A DNA stretch of 64,000 nucleotides from Escherichia coli (GTDB taxonomy: Bacteria; Pseudomonadota; Gammaproteobacteria; Enterobacterales; Enterobacteriaceae): the NCBI RefSeq assembly GCF_022846255.1, contig NZ_AP025682.1. One strand, given 5' to 3'. Below are positions 878-61,603 of the stretch, piece after piece. Position 1 is the stretch's first letter. Each line of letters opens with the position of its first letter. The position numbers were made by a program, and so were the translations under genes. A model generated the notes under the pieces. That model had not been told where the DNA came from. It worked only from the letters and a program-made list of their open reading frames with translations, and searched no databases.

Positions 878-2510
878 CCTACTGATAGCGATGATAATCT
901 TTGCGCTAATCTGGCCTGCAACCGCGCTCAGAGCGGCAGTGAGCAAAACAACCTGGGCGGATGCTCCGGCACGCGAGTTTGTGTTTGTCGAAAACAACTC
1001 AGACGACAACTTTTTCGTCACTCCTGGCGGGGCGCTGGATCCGCGCCTGACCGGTGCCAACCGCTGGACCGGTTTAAAATACAATGGTTCAGGAACCATC
1101 TATCAGCAAAGCCTCGGCTACATTGATAACGGTTACAACACCGGCCTTTATACCAACTGGAAGTTTGATATGTGGCTGGAAAATTCACCAGTTTCATCTC
1201 CTTTAACTGGCTTGCGCTGCATCAACTGGTACGCAGGGTGTAATATGACCACCAGTCTTATCCTGCCGCAAACCACCGACGCCAGTGGATTTTATGGCGC
1301 GACGGTGACCAGCGGCGGCGCGAAATGGATGCACGGCATGTTGTCAGACGCGTTTTACCAGTATCTGCAACAAATGCCCGTCGGCAGCAGCTTTACAATG
1401 ACCATCAATGCCTGCCAGACCTCTGTGAACTATGACGCCAGCAGCGGCGCACGCTGTAAGGATCAGGCCTCCGGCAACTGGTATGTTCGCAACGTCACCC
1501 ATACGAAAGCAGCAAATCTGCGGTTGATAAATACCCACTCGCTGGCGGAAGTATTTATCAACAGCGACGGAGTTCCGACTCTGGGCGAAGGGAACGCCGA
1601 CTGCCGGACGCAAACCATCGGCAGTCGTTCAGGATTAAGTTGTAAGATGGTTAACTATACCCTGCAAACAAACGGACTCAGCAACACCTCAATCCATATA
1701 TTCCCGGCGATCGCCAACTCGTCGTTAGCCTCGGCCGTCGGGGCGTACGATATGCAGTTCAGTCTGAATGGCAGTTCATGGAAACCGGTGAGCAATACTG
1801 CCTATTACTACACCTTCAACGAGATGAAGAGCGCAGACTCGATCTATGTTTTCTTCTCGAGCAACTTCTTTAAACAGATGGTGAACCTCGGGATCAGCGA
1901 TATCAACACCAAAGATCTATTCAACTTTCGCTTTCAGAACACCACATCACCGGAGTCTGGCTGGTATGAATTTTCTACCTCCAACACGCTGATTATCAAA
2001 CCCCGTGATTTCAGCATCAGTATTATCTCCGATGAATATACTCAGACACCGTCGCGGGAGGGATATGTCGGCAGCGGCGAGTCGGCACTCGATTTCGGCT
2101 ATATCGTAACCACCAGCGGTAAAACAGCTGCCGACGAAGTGCTGATCAAGGTGACCGGACCCGCGCAGGTGATTGGCGGGCGCTCCTATTGTGTCTTCAG
2201 CTCCGATGACGGTAAGGCTAAAGTACCGTTCCCGGCGACGCTTTCCTTTATTACCCGCAACGGAGCTACAAAAACCTACGATGCCGGGTGCGATGATAGC
2301 TGGCGGGATATGACCGATGCGCTGTGGTTGACCACACCGTGGACTGATATCTCTGGCGAAGTGGGGCAGATGGATAAGACCACAGTCAAATTTTCGATTC
2401 CAATGGATAACGCCATTTCTCTGCGTACGGTAGATGATAACGGCTGGTTTGGCGAAGTCAGCGCTTCAGGAGAGATTCATGTTCAGGCGACGTGGCGTAA
2501 CATTAACTAA
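867..2510 (+). CDS. ecpD: E. coli common pilus tip adhesin EcpD (YagW), 547 aa
   Basis: Full-length ORF with signal-peptide-like N-terminus ([20 protein letters not shown]); length and sequence match EcpD as I recall it. Confidence 0.9.
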
Positions 2511-3189
2511 GGCCCTGCTGACAGTGGTCTGTATGCTGGCGGCACCTTTGACACAGGCGATTTCGGTCGGCAATCTGACTTTTTCACTGCCGTCCGAGAC
2601 TGACTTTGTCAGCAAACGTGTCGTGAATAACAACAAAAGCGCGCGGATATACCGTATTGCCATCAGTGCTATTGATAGCCCGGGCAGCAGTGAATTGCGC
2701 ACCCGACCGGTGGATGGTGAACTACTTTTCGCCCCCCGCCAGCTGGCGTTGCAGGCTGGTGAGAGCGAGTATTTTAAATTTTACTATCATGGTCCACGGG
2801 ATAACCGCGAGCGCTACTACCGGGTCTCATTTCGCGAGGTCCCCACTCGTAACCTGACAAAACGCAGCCCAACCGGCGGTGAGGTCAGCACGGAGCCGGT
2901 GGTGGTGATGGATACCATTCTGGTAGTACGACCACGTCAGGTTCAGTTTAAATGGTCCTTCGATCAGGTGACCGGAACGGTAAGTAACACCGGCAACACG
3001 TGGTTTAAGCTACTGATTAAACCAGGATGTGATTCGACCGAAGAGGAAGGCGATGCCTGGTATCTACGTCCGGGAGACGTGGTTCATCAGCCTGAGTTAC
3101 GTCAGCCGGGGAATCATTATCTGGTCTATAACGACAAATTCATTAAGATTAGCGATTCCTGTCCGGCTAAGCCCCCTTCGGCGGACTAA
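2479..3189 (+). CDS. ecpE: Fimbrial chaperone EcpE (YagV), about 236 aa
   Basis: Start chosen at [14 protein letters not shown] (ORF track begins 15 codons earlier); overlaps ecpD end by 32 nt. Confidence 0.85.
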
Positions 3190-3501
3190 GACTTATCCAT
3201 CAGACGAGGGAAGAATTCCACCTCAGAGACTCAAAAATCGTTTAAATGATGTGGAAGCGATCGTCAATGTCACCTGTAACGATGAGCTTTCTCATATGCA
3301 CACCACAGTGTTCAGGAGACACGGAAAGGTACCAGGCGGCCTGCTAACGAGTGGTTTCTTCACTAATTAGGACGTAAAATCGGTAACGGCTGGAAATCAT
3401 TCAATACTCACACTATCGAAAGTACACCAGCCAACCGAGATACGTCCCTGCATACGACGTACCGCAGTTATCTTTACGATTTATAGCTGTACTGGTGAAT
3501 T

Positions 3502-3831
3502 ATGAGCAATCTGAATCCATGCATGACGTGTGGTGCCTGTTGTGCATTTTTCCGCGTCTCTTTTTACTGGGCCGAAGCCGACGATGCTGGCGGTACCATT
3601 CCCGCCAGGCTCACTGAACAAATATCCCCTTTTCACCGATGCATGAGCGGTACTAATCAGAAAAATCCCCGATGTATTGCCCTTGCAGGAACACCGGGCA
3701 AAAATGCCTGCTGCACGATATATGAAAATCGATCGTCCACATGCAGAGAATTCGCCATGTCTGGTGAGAACGGAGAAGTCAATGAGGCTTGCAATCGTGC
3801 AAGAGCTAAATACGGGCTAACACCGTTATAA
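3502..3831 (+). CDS. ykgJ: YkgJ, small Cys-rich protein (UPF0153, putative metal-binding), 109 aa
   Basis: Cys-rich motifs ([22 protein letters not shown]); K-12 neighbour of yagU and ecpE. Confidence 0.8.
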
Positions 3832-5504: not shown

Positions 5505-6758
5505 TTACGCACGAATGGTGTAATCACCAATGCCGATCCACTTGTAAGTGGTCAGTGCTTCCAGCCCCATTGGGCCACGCGCGTGGAGTTTTTGTGTGCT
5601 TACCGCCACTTCCGCACCCAGTCCAAACTGGCCGCCGTCGGTAAACCGCGTAGAGGCGTTAACGTAAACAGCGGACGAATCCACTTCGTTAACAAAACGC
5701 TGGGCGTTGCGCATATCGCGGGTCAGGATCGCATCGGAGTGTTGTGTGCCGTGTTCACGAATATGGGCGATGGCATCGTCAAGATCGCTGACGATTTTGA
5801 CGTTCAAATCTAATGACAGAAACTCATCGTCATACTCTTCCGCTTTAACAGCCACCACCTTCGCGGGGCCTGTCTGCAACTGCGCCAGCGCAGCTGCATC
5901 TGCGTGTAATGTCACGCCGCTTTCCGCCATTTGTTTGCTTAATGCGGGCAGGAAGCTATCGGCGATGTTTTTATTTACCAGCAACGTTTCTACCGTATTA
6001 CATGTGCTCGGACGCTGAGTTTTCGCGTTGACAATTACTTTCAGGGCTTCAGCGATCTCTGCACTTTCATCAACGTAAATATGGCATACGCCTATACCGC
6101 CTGTGATCACCGGGATTGTCGACTGTTCGCGGCACAGCTTATGCAGCCCAGCGCCACCACGCGGGATCAGCATGTCGATGTATTTATCCATACGCAGCAT
6201 TTCACTGACCAGCGCGCGGTCAGGATTATCAATCGCCTGCACGGCACCCGCCGGTAAGCCACAGGATTTCAGGGCGTCCTGAATCACCGCCACCGTTGCA
6301 GCGTTAGTGCGACAGGTTTCTTTGCCGCCGCGCAGGATCACCGCGTTACCCGTTTTCAGGCACAGCGAAGCGACATCAACCGTCACGTTCGGGCGAGCTT
6401 CATAAATCACGCCAATCACCCCCAGCGGCACGCGACGGCGCTCCAGACGCAGACCACTGTCCAGTACGCCGCCATCGATTACCTGCCCCACCGGATCGGC
6501 GAGATTGCACACCTGGCGCACATCGTCGGCAATGCCTTTCAGCCGTGCGGGCGTCAGTGCCAGACGGTCAAGCATCGCTTCGCTAAGGCCATTGGCACGC
6601 GCGTCTGCAACATCCTGCGCGTTAGCGTTGAGGATACTTTCGCTTTGTGCTTCCAGTTCATCGGCGATTTTTTCCAGCACACGATTTTTTTCGCGGCTGG
6701 AGAGTTGCGCTAATTTATACGAGGCTTGCTTCGCGGCAATGCCCATTTGTTCCAGCAT
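5505..6758 (-). CDS. proA: Gamma-glutamyl phosphate reductase, 417 aa
   Basis: Full-length match to ProA ([38 protein letters not shown]...). Confidence 0.97.
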
Positions 6759-16085: not shown

Positions 16086-16379
16086 TTATTCCTTAAAGTC
16101 ATTGAAATCATCATCCGTCATATCATTAAGATATTGTTCAGCGCGGCGTGTAATTTCCTCTAATCTTGCGGCACTCGGACGGAAGCGCGCCTTAACCAGT
16201 TTTTTCTCCTCTTGTTCAGCAAGCATGTCCATTAACGCTTCAAATGCGCTGGCACTTAAGAGATATCCTGCGGGGCGATTATTAGAAAGAACCGCAACCG
16301 GTTGATCAATAAAGTATTTAGCTGGGTTTTTACGTAACTCAGTGATATTGACCGATTTTTCAGCGAGAATTCGATGCAT
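16086..16379 (-). CDS. yafN: Antitoxin YafN (Phd/YefM family), 97 aa
   Basis: Full-length ORF; typical antitoxin-before-toxin arrangement. Confidence 0.9.
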   Translation of the reverse strand: MHRILAEKSVNITELRKNPAKYFIDQPVAVLSNNRPAGYLLSASAFEALMDMLAEQEEKKLVKARFRPSAARLEEITRRAEQYLNDMTDDDFNDFKE

Positions 16380-19358: not shown

Positions 19359-20078
19359 TTAATTCGGATAGACAAAATCACGAATTTTCTGCGCGATCTG
19401 TTTATTCAGTTGACAAATTCGGGCCTCGGTTAGCCCTAATACCAGCGCAATCTCTTTGAGATTCATCTCATGCTGGTAATACATGGAGAGGATCAGTTGC
19501 TCTTTTTCGCTTAATTGTGAAAGCGCGTGTTGCAGCATTTTCTGCGTGACAAACTGATCTTCCAGGTCTCTGCCAGCAAGCGGAATACCCGGTCCTTCGC
19601 CGTTCAGCAGTTCGTCCAGGCTGGCGAGCGTTTCCGCCCCTTCCAGTTGCTGATATTCGAGATAATCTTCATGCGAGATCCCTTCCTCAGCCAGCTCCTG
19701 CCACTCCGGTTCGTGCCCCAGTTTTTTACGCGTTTCGCGAATCAGGTCTTTCATCTGATGATATTTCTGTCGCAGCTGGCGCGGTCGCCAGTCGAGAGCG
19801 CGCAGCTCATCCAGGATCGCACCGCGAATACGGTGCACGGCATAGCCCGCAAAACCTTCGTCCGGCAGCCCATAGCGACGAATGGCCTTCAACAGCCCCA
19901 TTAACGCCGTTTGTTCCATATCCTGACGGTCAATAATGCAATTACACTGCGGGGCAAGGTGCCGCACCACTTTACGCACCAACGGTAAATAGGCCTGCAA
20001 GTAGTGGCTCTCCTGCTGCGGGGTTAATACCGGCGCGGCAGCAAATTCTTCTGACTCGAATAATACGTCCTGTAGCAT
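19359..20078 (-). CDS. lafS: Lateral flagellar sigma-28 (FliA-family) LafS, 239 aa
   Basis: Sigma-70 family regions 2 and 4 recognisable (e.g. LKEIALVLGLTEARICQLNKQ HTH). Confidence 0.85.
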   Translation of the reverse strand: MLQDVLFESEEFAAAPVLTPQQESHYLQAYLPLVRKVVRHLAPQCNCIIDRQDMEQTALMGLLKAIRRYGLPDEGFAGYAVHRIRGAILDELRALDWRPRQLRQKYHQMKDLIRETRKKLGHEPEWQELAEEGISHEDYLEYQQLEGAETLASLDELLNGEGPGIPLAGRDLEDQFVTQKMLQHALSQLSEKEQLILSMYYQHEMNLKEIALVLGLTEARICQLNKQIAQKIRDFVYPN

Positions 20079-23710: not shown

Positions 23711-23725
23711 GCAAAAGGCGTGCCA
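23711..23725 (-). promoter_or_regulatory. Sigma54 (-24/-12) promoter motif upstream of lafB
   Basis: Minus strand reads TGGCACgccttTTGC, a perfect match to TGGCAC-N5-TTGC; predicted start site about 20 nt upstream of the lafB ATG, which has a GGAG Shine-Dalgarno. Confidence 0.6.
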
Positions 23726-23842
23726 ATAATTTTTATGTGAATAATCAATAAATTGAAAAAGGGGCGGAAATGGTGTTTCCGGTCTGGCGGAAAAAAGCCT
23801 GCCGCTGAAAGCACAACACCGCCCGCAGGCGGTGTTGTTCGT

Positions 23843-23873
<31 letters not shown>

Positions 23874-23883
23874 AAGTCCGCCA

Positions 23884-24798
23884 TTACTGCAGCAGGCTGG
23901 AAACCATGCTGGACATGCTGTTGGACTGTTTCAGCATGGTGATGCCGGTCTGCATCAGCACCTGCTGTTTAGTCATGTTGGACGCTTCCGTCGCGTAGTC
24001 GGTATCCATAATGTTACCGATAGCGACTTCGGTGTTGTCCTGCATACTGGTCAGGTTATTAGCGGTGTCGTTCAGACGGTTGATAGACGCCCCCAGCTTG
24101 GACTGGATCTGCGAAACATCATCCATCGCGGTAGAAATGCTGGTGATCATCTGGTTAGCCGAGCCAGACGCAGTCAGCTCAGTACCGCCAGAAACGCCTG
24201 CGGTGCCAGTGGTGTCAGCCTGATCCGCACTGAAGGAGTTGCTGATAGCAGAAAGATCCGTCACCAGGGTATTCAGCTGGCTTGAAATATTCACGGTCAT
24301 GGTGTCGGAAGATTCCGCGCCCACCTGGAAAGTTACTGCGCTCTGGAACAGACCGTCAGTACCGGTGTTGCTGGTACCGGAAACACCGAACAGGTTGGTG
24401 CCGCCGTAAGTGGTGTTTTGCAGCATGTCAGACATCTGCTGACCCAGTTCATCGTATTCGTCCTGCATCGCCTGCAGATCGTCGTCGCTGTAGGTGCCGT
24501 TCGCTGCCTGAGTTGACAGGTCTTTCATACGACCCAGCACATCAGACATTTCGTCGAACATGCTGTCAGCGGTTTGCAGCATCGCGGTGGCATCATTGAT
24601 GTTGCTCAGCGCCACACCCATACCGCTGGACTGTGCTGTCAGACGGTTAGCAATTTGTTTGCCTGCGGCGTCATCGGCAGAAGAGTTAATCCGGTTACCC
24701 GTTGCCAGGCGTTCCATAGATGTAGACAGAGAAGAGCTGCTTTTACTGATTGCATTAACGGCGGCCATTGAGGCGTTATTGGTGTTAATAGATAACAT
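23884..24798 (-). CDS. lafA: Lateral flagellin LafA, about 304 aa
   Basis: Conserved flagellin N-terminus (MLSINTNNASMAAVNAISKS...) and C-terminus (...LMQTGITMLKQSNSMSSMVSSLLQ); start at 24798 has an AAGGAG Shine-Dalgarno; short Ser/Thr-rich variable domain. Confidence 0.9.
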   Translation of the reverse strand: MLSINTNNASMAAVNAISKSSSSLSTSMERLATGNRINSSADDAAGKQIANRLTAQSSGMGVALSNINDATAMLQTADSMFDEMSDVLGRMKDLSTQAANGTYSDDDLQAMQDEYDELGQQMSDMLQNTTYGGTNLFGVSGTSNTGTDGLFQSAVTFQVGAESSDTMTVNISSQLNTLVTDLSAISNSFSADQADTTGTAGVSGGTELTASGSANQMITSISTAMDDVSQIQSKLGASINRLNDTANNLTSMQDNTEVAIGNIMDTDYATEASNMTKQQVLMQTGITMLKQSNSMSSMVSSLLQ

Positions 24799-25232
24799 GA
24801 TACTGCTCCTTGGGATTAATCGTTTTCGTTTCGATACCCTGTAAAAACGACACCTCAGGAGCAAACTTAAAATCGCCGTTAAAATTTTTTCGCCACGTAT
24901 TATCCGATGCCACTTTTAGCTAAAAAAAGCAGAGGTTAAATTCAGATAAAAAGATTATTAGCAATATCTGCCACATGGCCAGGAATCAAAATATGTCTTT
25001 ATCAAATGCTTGATATAGTTAAGATTGTCATCAATTAACGCGTTTTCTTCTCAATGTACTGATGCCAAAATTTACATTGCGTTGCAAATAGTACACGTTT
25101 AGCTATTGTGCCTGTCCTGTCATTTCGTTACATTTCCACGCCATATAGTGATTAAGAATAATCCTATTACCATAAAATATTAATTATCACGCAGAAAAAT
25201 CATCTTCTCAGGGACGTATAAGACTGTGCTTT

Positions 25233-29499: not shown

Positions 29500-29571
29500 G
29501 TTGGGTCCTTACCGGTAAATCGTGCCGGTTAAAAGCGGCGTGAAGTTGGGGATTCTTAAGTGGATAATGGT

Positions 29572-29705
29572 GCGCGCTGATGCCCTCACCCCGGCCCTCT
29601 CCCACAGGGAGAGGGCGAAAACCTGCGCCATATTCACCTCCGCGCTCAATCGGTCCCCTCGCCCCTTTGGGGAGAGGGTTAGGGTGAGGGGCAAAGCGCG
29701 CCCCT
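29572..29705. repeat. ~130-bp compound palindromic intergenic repeat, copy A (two hairpin units), between lfgK and lfgJ
   Basis: CCCTCACCCCGGCCCTCTCCCacaGGGAGAGGGC ... TCCCCTCGCCCCTTTGGGGAGAGGGTTAGGGTGAGGGG; near-exact reverse complement of copy B at 38862..38993. Confidence 0.6.
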
Positions 29706-36211: not shown

Positions 36212-36228
36212 AGCAATCGCCGTGCCAT
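36212..36228 (-). promoter_or_regulatory. Sigma54 (-24/-12) promoter motif for the lfgB...L operon
   Basis: Minus strand reads TGGCACggcgaTTGCT, a perfect match to TGGCAC-N5-TTGCW, about 25 nt upstream of the lfgB start. Confidence 0.65.
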
Positions 36229-36256: not shown

Positions 36257-36994
36257 ATGAGTTTTCAATTTTGCAGGCGGAAGTTTTATTTCCTCCTGGC
36301 GCTGGCCTTACCGGGCTACGCCGCCGTCCATCCCGTGCAACATAGCGCGCGGGAACAAGTCAACGCCCAGGTGCTGAATGCCGCCAGCCAGCAGATTGAA
36401 TCGCTAGCGCAGCAGCGGCAGTGGCATGACTATCGCTACACCTTTAAGGTCTACATTCCCTCGCAGATTTCGACTGCCGCGCCCTGCGCTACGGCCCCCG
36501 GCGTCACGCTGACTTCGCCTGCGGAAATCGCTCTCAACCGGATGAACTTCACCGTCAGTTGCCCGCAAAGCTGGCAGATGAACGTCGCGGTGCGCCCGGA
36601 TGTTCTGGTACCGGTGGTGATGGCAAAGTCACTGGTTGCCCGCGATACGCCGCTCACGGCAAATGATGTGGAGCTGAAGCCCTACAACGTCAGCGCCCAG
36701 CGTCGCGATGTGTTGATGGAGCTTGATGACGCGATTGGTTTCAGCAGTAAACACGCGTTGCAGCCGGGCAGGCCAATCACCAAAGAAGAACTGATATCTC
36801 CGGTGCTGGTCGAGCGCGATCAACCGGTGATGATTGTTTACCAGAGCGCGGGGATCAGCGCCTCGCTGCCCGGCGTGGCGCTGAAAAATGGTCGTAAGGG
36901 CGAGATGGTGAAAGTGCGTAACGCCAGCAGCCAGCGGGTCATCAGCGCGATGGTGGCAGAAAGCGGCGTGGTGACGACGGTAAGCGCGGAGTAA
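36257..36994 (+). CDS. lfgA: P-ring assembly chaperone LfgA (FlgA-like); ORF-track start is 36236
   Basis: Signal-peptide-like N-terminus, FlgA-like C-terminal domain; divergent from lfgB as in flgA/flgB arrangements. Confidence 0.75.
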   Translation: MSFQFCRRKFYFLLALALPGYAAVHPVQHSAREQVNAQVLNAASQQIESLAQQRQWHDYRYTFKVYIPSQISTAAPCATAPGVTLTSPAEIALNRMNFTVSCPQSWQMNVAVRPDVLVPVVMAKSLVARDTPLTANDVELKPYNVSAQRRDVLMELDDAIGFSSKHALQPGRPITKEELISPVLVERDQPVMIVYQSAGISASLPGVALKNGRKGEMVKVRNASSQRVISAMVAESGVVTTVSAE

Positions 36995-37074
36995 TTTGCG
37001 CAGGCGATTAAAGTTTTGCCGCCTGTTAACCGCTTTACTGGAGTAACCCACCTAAATACCGAGACGAGGTTGCG

Positions 37075-37794: not shown

Positions 37795-37921
37795 CGACAA
37801 TTCCTTCCGCCATCGCGGAAACGGATTTTCCGCCTGATTCTCAATCCCTTGTTTTTGATTACAAAAATTCCCGGCACGCTTATTGCACATTCCGCAAAGT
37901 AATAAAGACTGGAAGCCACCT

Positions 37922-41484: not shown

Positions 41485-41566
41485 TGCCTGATGCGCTTCG
41501 CTTATCAGGCCTACGGATCGATCACGTCTTGTAGGCAGATAAGGCGTTTACGCCGCATCCGGAAAG
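41485..41566. repeat. Pair of REP elements downstream of the glycosyltransferase gene
   Basis: GCCTGATGCGCTTCGCTTATCAGGCCTAC and GTAGGCAGATAAGGCGTTTACGCCGCATCCGG. Confidence 0.6.
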
Positions 41567-41583
41567 AAACAAACATCTCTGTG

Positions 41584-41988
41584 TTAGTACTTTATATAAT
41601 TCCCCCTAATCACCTCAATGATCCCCGTCGTCGATACCGACGGCGTACGGGGAAAATAGACCACCTCACAGATACACGAGAAATCGTCAAACTTCCCTGC
41701 CCAGTCATCACCCATCACCAAAATATCCGCACTGTACCCCCACAGATATTCCGCTTTCTGCGCCAGCGACTCCTCCAGAAATACGCCATCCACGCACGCC
41801 AGCCCGGCGATGATCGACATGCGGTCATCCTGATGGTAAACCGGTGCTCTGCCCTTTTTGGCGATATTTAAGGCGTCGGACGATACGCCGACCAGCAGCC
41901 GTTCGCCCAGCGTGCGGGCGCGTTGTAAAAGGCGCAGATGACCGACATGAAACACATCGAAGGTGCCGAAGGTGATGACCGTTTTCAT
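41584..41988 (-). CDS. TagD-like cytidylyltransferase (glycerol-3-phosphate cytidylyltransferase family), about 134 aa
   Basis: Nucleotidyltransferase HxGH-type motif (ITFGTFDVFHVGHLRLL) and size matching TagD/TarD-type enzymes; start set at MKTVITFG, 2 nt after the lfiJ stop. Confidence 0.75.
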   Translation of the reverse strand: MKTVITFGTFDVFHVGHLRLLQRARTLGERLLVGVSSDALNIAKKGRAPVYHQDDRMSIIAGLACVDGVFLEESLAQKAEYLWGYSADILVMGDDWAGKFDDFSCICEVVYFPRTPSVSTTGIIEVIRGNYIKY

Positions 41989-61095: not shown

Positions 61096-61120
61096 CGGAG
61101 CCTTTCGGCTCCGTTTTTTT
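61096..61120 (+). terminator. Rho-independent terminator downstream of fadE
   Basis: CGGAGCC-tttc-GGCTCCG hairpin followed by TTTTTTT. Confidence 0.7.
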
Positions 61121-61129
61121 ATCGGCTAA

Positions 61130-61603
61130 TTATTTAAAATTAAAGCCATCCGGATGGTTTTCCAGGCTGCCGGTCAACGCCGCGAACAGCACCGTTTTAC
61201 CATCAATAGAAAGCGCATCGTTCACATTCAACCAGGTGAGTTTCTCTTGCGACGTTTTCTCATCAATGGTCGAGAACAGCCCCGTCATCTGATTAGATTT
61301 CTCGGACCACATCACAGCGATACGTTGCGAGCCACAGTCATGCGGTTTGCACGCGCTCATCACCTGATACGTCTCATCTCCCAACGTTACGGTTTGTGCA
61401 GGGGTATAAGTACCGCCTTTCATCACCCAGGCCGGCAGCTTATGCCCTTGCACCATCTGATTAAACGCCGCTTTGGTGGTTTCGCCCTTTGCAAGACTGC
61501 TAATGGTTAAATCATCCTGCGCCATTGCACTGGTGGCGATGACCAGAGCGGCGACTGTCGTTATTGCCTTAAACATCATTCCTCCCGGGCTTATCCTGCC
61601 CAT
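61130..61603 (-). CDS. ivy: Inhibitor of vertebrate lysozyme Ivy, 157 aa
   Basis: Signal peptide plus the conserved CKPHDC loop. Confidence 0.93.
   Translation of the reverse strand: MGRISPGGMMFKAITTVAALVIATSAMAQDDLTISSLAKGETTKAAFNQMVQGHKLPAWVMKGGTYTPAQTVTLGDETYQVMSACKPHDCGSQRIAVMWSEKSNQMTGLFSTIDEKTSQEKLTWLNVNDALSIDGKTVLFAALTGSLENHPDGFNFK

Follow-up and report, generated by a model that had tools for sequence, protein, structure and literature searches.

The 64-kb stretch of Escherichia coli DNA analyzed here (the window) matches, by its sequence, the Flag-2 (lateral flagella) locus of this species. An 801-bp probe across lafA found matches with 95-99% identity, annotated 'lateral flagellin LafA', in 1276 of 5426 complete E. 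coli genomes. The genes of the window were identified by transferring the RefSeq annotation of strain SMS-3-5 with tblastn, and those of interest are listed in Table 1 together with the features described below. The flagellin gene lafA is separated by 485 bp from lafZ, a divergent gene for a ToxR/OmpR-type regulator. The lafA ATG (24798-24796) was confirmed by the 100% identity to RefSeq LafA over all 304 amino acids and by the presence of an AAGGAG ribosome-binding site. The strong terminator-like hairpin found 3' of the gene makes lafA probably monocistronic. This hairpin is preceded by a REP-type repeat (about 23845-23875, minus strand); a scan for consensus terminators flagged instead another palindrome, that at 23781-23765, more probably a site for LafK. 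Flag-2 has been reported to be non-functional in some E. coli strains (PMC4481668). Both lfgM (92 amino acids) and lafS are full length in the window when compared to the RefSeq proteins. At about 41515-41600, in the variable region lfiJ-lfgN, the window is missing two hypothetical genes of SMS-3-5 when compared to positions 1934-3572 of locus L001.

Table 1. Genes, predicted promoters and associated elements in the window. Where only one position is given for a gene, it is the start of the coding sequence.
Feature	Position	Strand	Remarks
lafT	19346	-
lafS	20078	-
lafS coding sequence	19359..20078	-	FliA/WhiG-family sigma factor, intact, 239 aa; presumed reader of the lafA, lfgK and lfgM promoters
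lafB	23678	-
Sigma-54 promoter of lafB	23711-23725	-	exact TGGCAC-N5-TTGC
Terminator-like hairpin 3' of lafA	23812..23837	-	followed by GCUUU; -26.5 kcal/mol, z = -3.7
lafA	24798	-
lafA coding sequence	23884..24798	-	lateral flagellin, 304 aa + stop codon; 100% identical to RefSeq WP_000949083.1
lafA ribosome-binding site, AAGGAG	24806..24811	-	alignment columns A90 and G93 invariant, neighbors at least 90% conserved
Predicted lafA transcription start, ~24836	24834..24838	-	placed by the canonical register (-15)GCCGATAA(-8), PMC12784957
lafA -10 block, GTCGTTTT	24844..24851	-	predicted positions -15 to -8
lafA spacer, GCTCCTGAGGT, 11 nt	24852..24862	-	sequence not conserved; length 11 or 12 nt in orthologs
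lafA -35 block, TTAAGTTT	24863..24870	-	predicted positions -34 to -27
A6T4AA tract	24879..24890	-	about -54 to -43; A6T4 part 24890-24881, roughly -54 to -45
lafZ	25284	+
lfgK	29499	-
lfgK promoter, TTAAGAAT-N12-GCCGCTTT	29532..29559	-	predicted; 32 intervening nt to the lfgK ATG
lfgB	36175	-
Sigma-54 promoter of lfgB	36213-36227	-	exact TGGCAC-N5-TTGC
lfgA	36257	+
lfgM promoter, TAAAGTTT-N12-ACCGCTTT	37009..37036	+	predicted; 38 intervening nt to the lfgM ATG
lfgM	37075	+	anti-sigma factor gene
Sigma-54 promoter of glycosyltransferase/cargo operon	37872-37886	+	one mismatch
lafK	48456	-

A promoter upstream of lafA is in itself an expected kind of feature. An earlier note on this DNA had described a weak sigma-28-like motif, TTAAGTTT-N11-GTCGTTTT, on the minus strand about 45 nt upstream of the lafA start. 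The sequence bears out this layout, with 45 nt (24843-24799) between the -10 block and the ATG; the range proposed for the motif, 24843-24870, contains both blocks plus one surplus base at the 3' end, the true end being 24844. The counts that it gave for the comparison to the FliA consensus are also correct: 7 of 8 positions are identical to TAAAGTTT and 4 of 8 to GCCGATAA, for a total of 11/16. By this measure the site is at background level, as sequences with at least 11 matches occur at 142 sites of the window versus approximately 83 in shuffled versions. The best match to the FliA consensus anywhere in the window, TTTAATTT-N10-GCCGATAA (61119-61144, minus strand), lies at the end of ivy, in the convergent terminator region with fadE, and was discarded as probably due to chance. 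When compared to canonical sigma-28 promoters, the lafA site has the -35 block and the spacer of about 11 nt, and lacks the GCCGATAA -10 element with its -11 A; in GTCGTTTT a T takes the place of this base, which is flipped in canonical sigma-28 promoters.

The conservation of the motif was assessed in a one-genome-per-species scan that yielded 27 loci with an orthologous lafA start, with LafA identities of 69-100%, in Escherichia, Citrobacter, Pseudocitrobacter, Phytobacter, Enterobacter, Leminorella and others. The sequence TTAA(G/T)TT(T/C)-N11/12-G(T/C)CG(C/T)(T/A)TT was found in all 27, 45-50 nt before the ATG. The spacer, which is 11 nt long in the window and 12 nt long in most orthologs, has unrelated sequences in different genera while both flanking blocks are kept. 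Among 22 distinct orthologous sites the -35 block starts with T (22/22), T (22/22), A (21/22) and A (22/22), and the G, C, G and last two T residues of the -10 block are present in every one. An alignment of 17 lafA upstream sequences showed the same picture: the invariant columns are those of the A/T tract, the -35 block, the G-CG--TT of the -10 block (G50, C52, G53, T56 and T57) and the ribosome-binding site. Since GTCGTTTT is the commonest form of the lafA -10 block among the orthologs (12 of 23 listed sites, followed by GTCGCTTT with 5), the qualification of the motif as weak has to be abandoned. The lafA motif looks weak only when it is measured against the sigma-28 consensus because the LafS-type promoters appear to have a conserved -10 element of their own.

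Additional lafA copies were found in some of these genomes. One in locus L019 has its own copy of the LafS-type motif (16297-16323, plus strand), and two loci of Enterobacter sp. kpr-6 (L020 and L027) represent extra lafA copies or a second Flag-2-like locus, each with its own motif. The LafA protein is 100% identical to that of the window in loci L003-L007, which belong to several named genera (Citrobacter sp. MAG, Escherichia sp., Pseudocitrobacter faecalis, Pseudocitrobacter vendiensis and E. whittamii). Divergence is seen in lafZ and in the intergenic DNA, with a LafZ identity of about 63% in Pseudocitrobacter. The identity of LafA amid diverged surroundings suggests a recent exchange of lafA or a strong constraint.

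The homology search with LafA recovered close Enterobacterales relatives only, and neither Vibrio nor Aeromonas was among them; more distant loci were found through LafS representatives. Four of these, with LafS proteins 43-48% identical, have TTAAG/TTCAG-N14/15-GTCG(C/T)(T/A)T before lafA, and two of the four also have it before lfgK. On chromosome 2 of Vibrio campbellii, where LafS is about 40% identical, lafA, lfgK and lfgM share TTAAT-N15-(G/A)(T/C)CGCCT. The possibility that V. campbellii lafA has a canonical promoter (GGCGATAG, 31 nt before the ATG) was considered and dropped, as TTAAT-N15-GTCGCCT is shared by its lfgK, lfgM and lafA. The canonical-looking GGCGATAG nonetheless lies beside the lateral-type motif (L044, about 6555-6585) and may be there by chance or be a site for the polar sigma-28. 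The Vibrio variant, TTAAT-N15-GTCGCCT, differs from TTAAG-N14/15-GTCGYTTT. The pattern common to the putative LafS-type promoters is TTAA(G/T)-N14-15-G(T/C)CG(C/T)(T/A/C)T. A full-text literature search, within whose reach the primary studies on lateral-flagella promoters did not fall, returned no paper stating a LafS consensus.

A matrix was built from the 22 distinct lafA sites of other genera, the window and sequences nearly identical to it being excluded. The instances had been located by a regular expression, a procedure that favors the pattern, yet no locus was without an instance, and the distance to the ATG was consistent. With this matrix the lafA site scored 28.7 bits and was the top match in the window on both strands, while the maxima of 40 shuffled windows had a mean of 13.8 bits (sd 2.8) and did not exceed 20.2 bits. 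The second and third ranks in the whole 64 kb are located just upstream of lfgK and lfgM. Their scores, 15.5 and 15.3 bits respectively, are within the range of the shuffled-window maxima, so that these two sites are supported by position and conservation and not by score alone. For the strict core TTAAG-N14/15-GYCGYWT the window has two occurrences, at lafA and lfgK, versus 0.19 expected, and in the 738 kb of loci retrieved for comparison its matches lie upstream of lafA copies, lfgK and lfgM with one exception, a GGDEF gene. This exception is found in locus L041 (18119-18146, plus strand), where 35 nt separate TTAAGATA-N12-GTCGCTTT from the downstream gene for a MASE5-GGDEF protein (diguanylate cyclase), which is not part of the flagellar cluster; the gene could possibly be a non-flagellar member of a LafS regulon.

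Each of the 21 loci with an lfgK gene has kept the lfgK site, and the spacers are divergent. Upstream of its -35 block the window and the loci L003 and L004 have different repeat elements, and their similarity starts at the -35 block itself. At this place (29560-29700 in the window) the repeats of the different strains are either of the REP type or of the CCCTCTCCC...GAGGG type. For lfgM, conservation is that of two Enterobacterales sequences plus Vibrio; Phytobacter (L014) has TTAAGTTT-N12-GCCGCTTT at the same position. The two-block motif common to lafA, lfgK and lfgM and conserved among orthologs supports the suggestion, made in the earlier note, that LafS may have a diverged -10 preference. 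That note also proposed comparing the upstream regions of lafA, lafT, lfgK and lfgM. The first, third and fourth share the motif. In the case of lafT, whose start is separated by 12 nt from the lafS stop codon, the matrix found no match inside lafS and there is no promoter of its own.

Is the lafA site then read by LafS or by FliA, the sigma factor of the primary flagellar system (Flag-1)? The second possibility, which would tie lafA to the primary flagellar regulon, can draw on the good agreement of the -35 block with the FliA consensus, on the perfect TAAAGTTT of the lfgM site and on the G-N-C-G core of the -10 block, which is kept. The sigma-70 factor flips the adenine at -11 to start DNA melting. 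In the canonical sigma-28 promoter, (-15)GCCGATAA(-8), the -11 A that is likewise flipped out is that of the non-template strand, and the G at -15/-14 is recognized by R97 (PMC12784957). The lafA -10 block has neither this -11 A nor the T-A-A that follows it. The missing -11 A is common to the lateral sites: among 15 distinct variants of the -10 block, position -13 is always C, -12 is always G, and -11 is C in 13 and T in two, never A. The E. coli Flag-1 promoters of fliC (TAAAGGTT-N11-GACGATAA) and fliD (TAAACTTT-N11-GCCGATAA) in turn obtain about 0 bits with the lateral matrix. In addition, the lafA motif is kept (L021) in Leminorella grimontii ATCC 33999, a strain devoid of Flag-1 (PMC6993521), and this argues for LafS and not FliA as the reader. 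Recognition by FliA is therefore quite improbable.

The properties of LafS are in keeping with a reader of the sigma-28 family. Among solved structures its best matches are FliA proteins (E = 2e-32), and within the FliA-like proteins it falls into a distinct clade, with about 20 representatives at E < 1e-30 and the general FliA proteins reaching a plateau near 1e-28. The residues of the clade were compared to those of 97 general FliA proteins using Pseudomonas numbering and the DNA contacts described in PMC12784957. At contact positions the R of the general proteins at 40 is Q or H in the LafS clade, their R/K is Q at 101 and H at 104, and their S at 224 is A. Most of the clade lacks D66, and S72 is altered; the loop 66-72, which contains both, is remodeled and in most members shorter by one residue. 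Further features of the clade are an invariant Arg at 95 and K or R at 231, neither of which is a reported contact. The association between these changes and the type of -10 element is correlative only.

Compared to canonical FliA promoters (TAAAGTTT-N11-GCCGATAA; fliC, fliD and tar in E. coli), the lateral sites have the same two-block layout, an 11-12-nt spacer, a -35 of the TAAAG/TTAAG type and the same G-N-C-G start of the -10 element. They also occupy the same place, before the genes for flagellin, flgK and flgM, and the pairing of sigma and anti-sigma factor, here LafS and LfgM, is the same. The difference resides at -11 to -8, where the lateral sites have (C/T)(T/A/C)TT and not ATAA, and their agreement with the FliA consensus is limited to 10-12 of the 16 positions.

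Directly upstream of the lafA -35 block lies the A6T4AA tract. Nearly all lafA orthologs have a run of A followed by a run of T located 8-12 nt upstream of the -35 block. The tract looks like a UP element that would serve a high flagellin output. A flagellin promoter with a UP element is that of Bacillus subtilis hag, which is read by sigma-D. In both cases an A/T tract immediately precedes the -35 block of a flagellin promoter for a factor of the sigma-28 family, putatively so at lafA; the A6T4 tract is absent upstream of lfgK and lfgM.

The lafB and lfgB operons, as well as the glycosyltransferase/cargo operon, are preceded by sigma-54 sites, and a scan of the window found none at lafA, lfgK or lfgM. 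The division is directly observed: the LafS-type motif is present at the late operons lafA, lfgK and lfgM, and the early lafB and lfgB carry sigma-54 sites instead. The sigma-54 site before lafB makes lafS and lafT appear to be part of a sigma-54-dependent operon, and lafT appears to be co-transcribed from the lafB promoter. Palindromes of the type GGAAR-N5-YTTCC are found about 40-50 nt upstream of the lafB, lfgB and cargo-operon sigma-54 sites (23766-23780, 36279-36293 and 37817-37831, respectively). The window has seven matches versus 1.6 expected, and similar repeats precede lafB in distant loci; the palindromes are probably LafK enhancer sites.

A different explanation is that the two blocks are no promoter and are bound by a regulator, LafZ or LafK for example, or that they are part of a longer 5' UTR transcribed from an upstream promoter. 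The proximity of the divergent lafZ would be compatible with the former and the weak sigma-70-like hexamers at 24981-24954 and 25211-25183 with the latter. However, no sigma-70 site (TTGACA-N16-18-TATAAT) overlaps the lafA motif, and the three weak matches (9/12) in the region are as many as expected in shuffled sequences (3.0). There is no sigma-54 site (TGGCAC-N5-TTGC, one mismatch at most) between lafZ and lafA, and the prediction for the RNA downstream of the motif spoke against a hairpin or a structured 5' UTR (-2.7 kcal/mol, z = +1.3). Furthermore, the same asymmetric pattern of two blocks, with fixed spacing and a free spacer, is present at lfgK and lfgM within unrelated flanks, and at lfgK the upstream flank has been swapped for different repeats right up to the -35 block. 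This explanation is about as improbable as recognition by FliA. A fortuitous similarity within AT-rich intergenic DNA, for which the background-level count of 11/16 could be invoked, is the least believable of all considering the conservation across genera with turnover of the spacer, the matrix score of the site in comparison to the shuffled windows and the specificity of the core pattern.

We conclude, with a probability of roughly 85%, that the motif upstream of lafA is a LafS-dependent class-3 (late) promoter with a lineage-specific -10 element. In the proposed mechanism, RNA polymerase containing LafS would bind TTAAGTTT through sigma domain 4, and domains 2 and 3 of LafS would bind GTCGTTTT, and transcription would start near 24836, some 7-8 nt past this block. 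This would yield a monocistronic lafA mRNA, its 5' UTR being about 38 nt long as estimated from the predicted start, and the output would probably be raised by the A6T4 tract acting as a UP element. The lafS gene would be expressed as part of the lafB-lafU operon from the sigma-54 promoter, presumably activated by LafK, and the anti-sigma factor LfgM would presumably block LafS for as long as the hook-basal body is unfinished. As a consequence of both the sigma-54 origin of LafS and its retention by LfgM, lafA, lfgKL and lfgMN would fire last. The putative LafS-type -10 element retains the G-N-C-G core of sigma-28 promoters, and the A-T-A-A half, including the flipped -11 A, is replaced by a pyrimidine and a T-rich sequence.

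This proposal resembles the hierarchy of Vibrio parahaemolyticus, Aeromonas and Plesiomonas, in which LafK and sigma-54 are followed by a lateral sigma-28 (LafS or FliA_L) and this by lafA, flgMN_L and flgKL_L; the window has the same set of genes and the same division of labor. In Plesiomonas, the LafS homolog FliA_L activates fliC_L, flgMN_L and flgKL_L as determined by RNA-seq (PMC11242183). The split found in the window, where lafB and lfgB have sigma-54 sites and the sites of lafA, lfgK and lfgM are of the LafS type, matches the Plesiomonas FliA_L regulon.

A more general and tentative hypothesis, to which we would give somewhat less than even odds, is that the sigma factors of the LafS clade, from the lateral system of Vibrio to the enterobacterial Flag-2, recognize a G(T/C)CG(C/T)-T-rich -10 element that never has A at -11, and that this element keeps the Flag-1 and Flag-2 regulons apart. 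Should this hold, the factors of this clade would open the DNA through a different base or a different pocket. The shortened specificity loop together with Q/H40, H104, Arg95 and K/R231 would fit the idea of an altered DNA opening.

These findings provide a promoter map for the Flag-2 system of E. coli and other Enterobacterales, with LafS-type sites at lafA, lfgK and lfgM, and sigma-54 sites, each with a likely LafK enhancer, at lafB, lfgB and the cargo operon. They also provide a searchable LafS consensus, which is missed by the FliA consensus and permits the prediction of LafS regulons in genomes as well as the design of reporters to follow the timing of expression of this poorly understood second flagellar system. 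In a cell that has both systems the altered -10 element should separate the regulon of FliA (Flag-1) from that of LafS (Flag-2), and the consensus offers a way to ask whether -10 specificity insulates coexisting sigma-28 regulons. If this is true, the altered -10 element would be a device against the cross-activation of two sigma-28 regulons in one cell.
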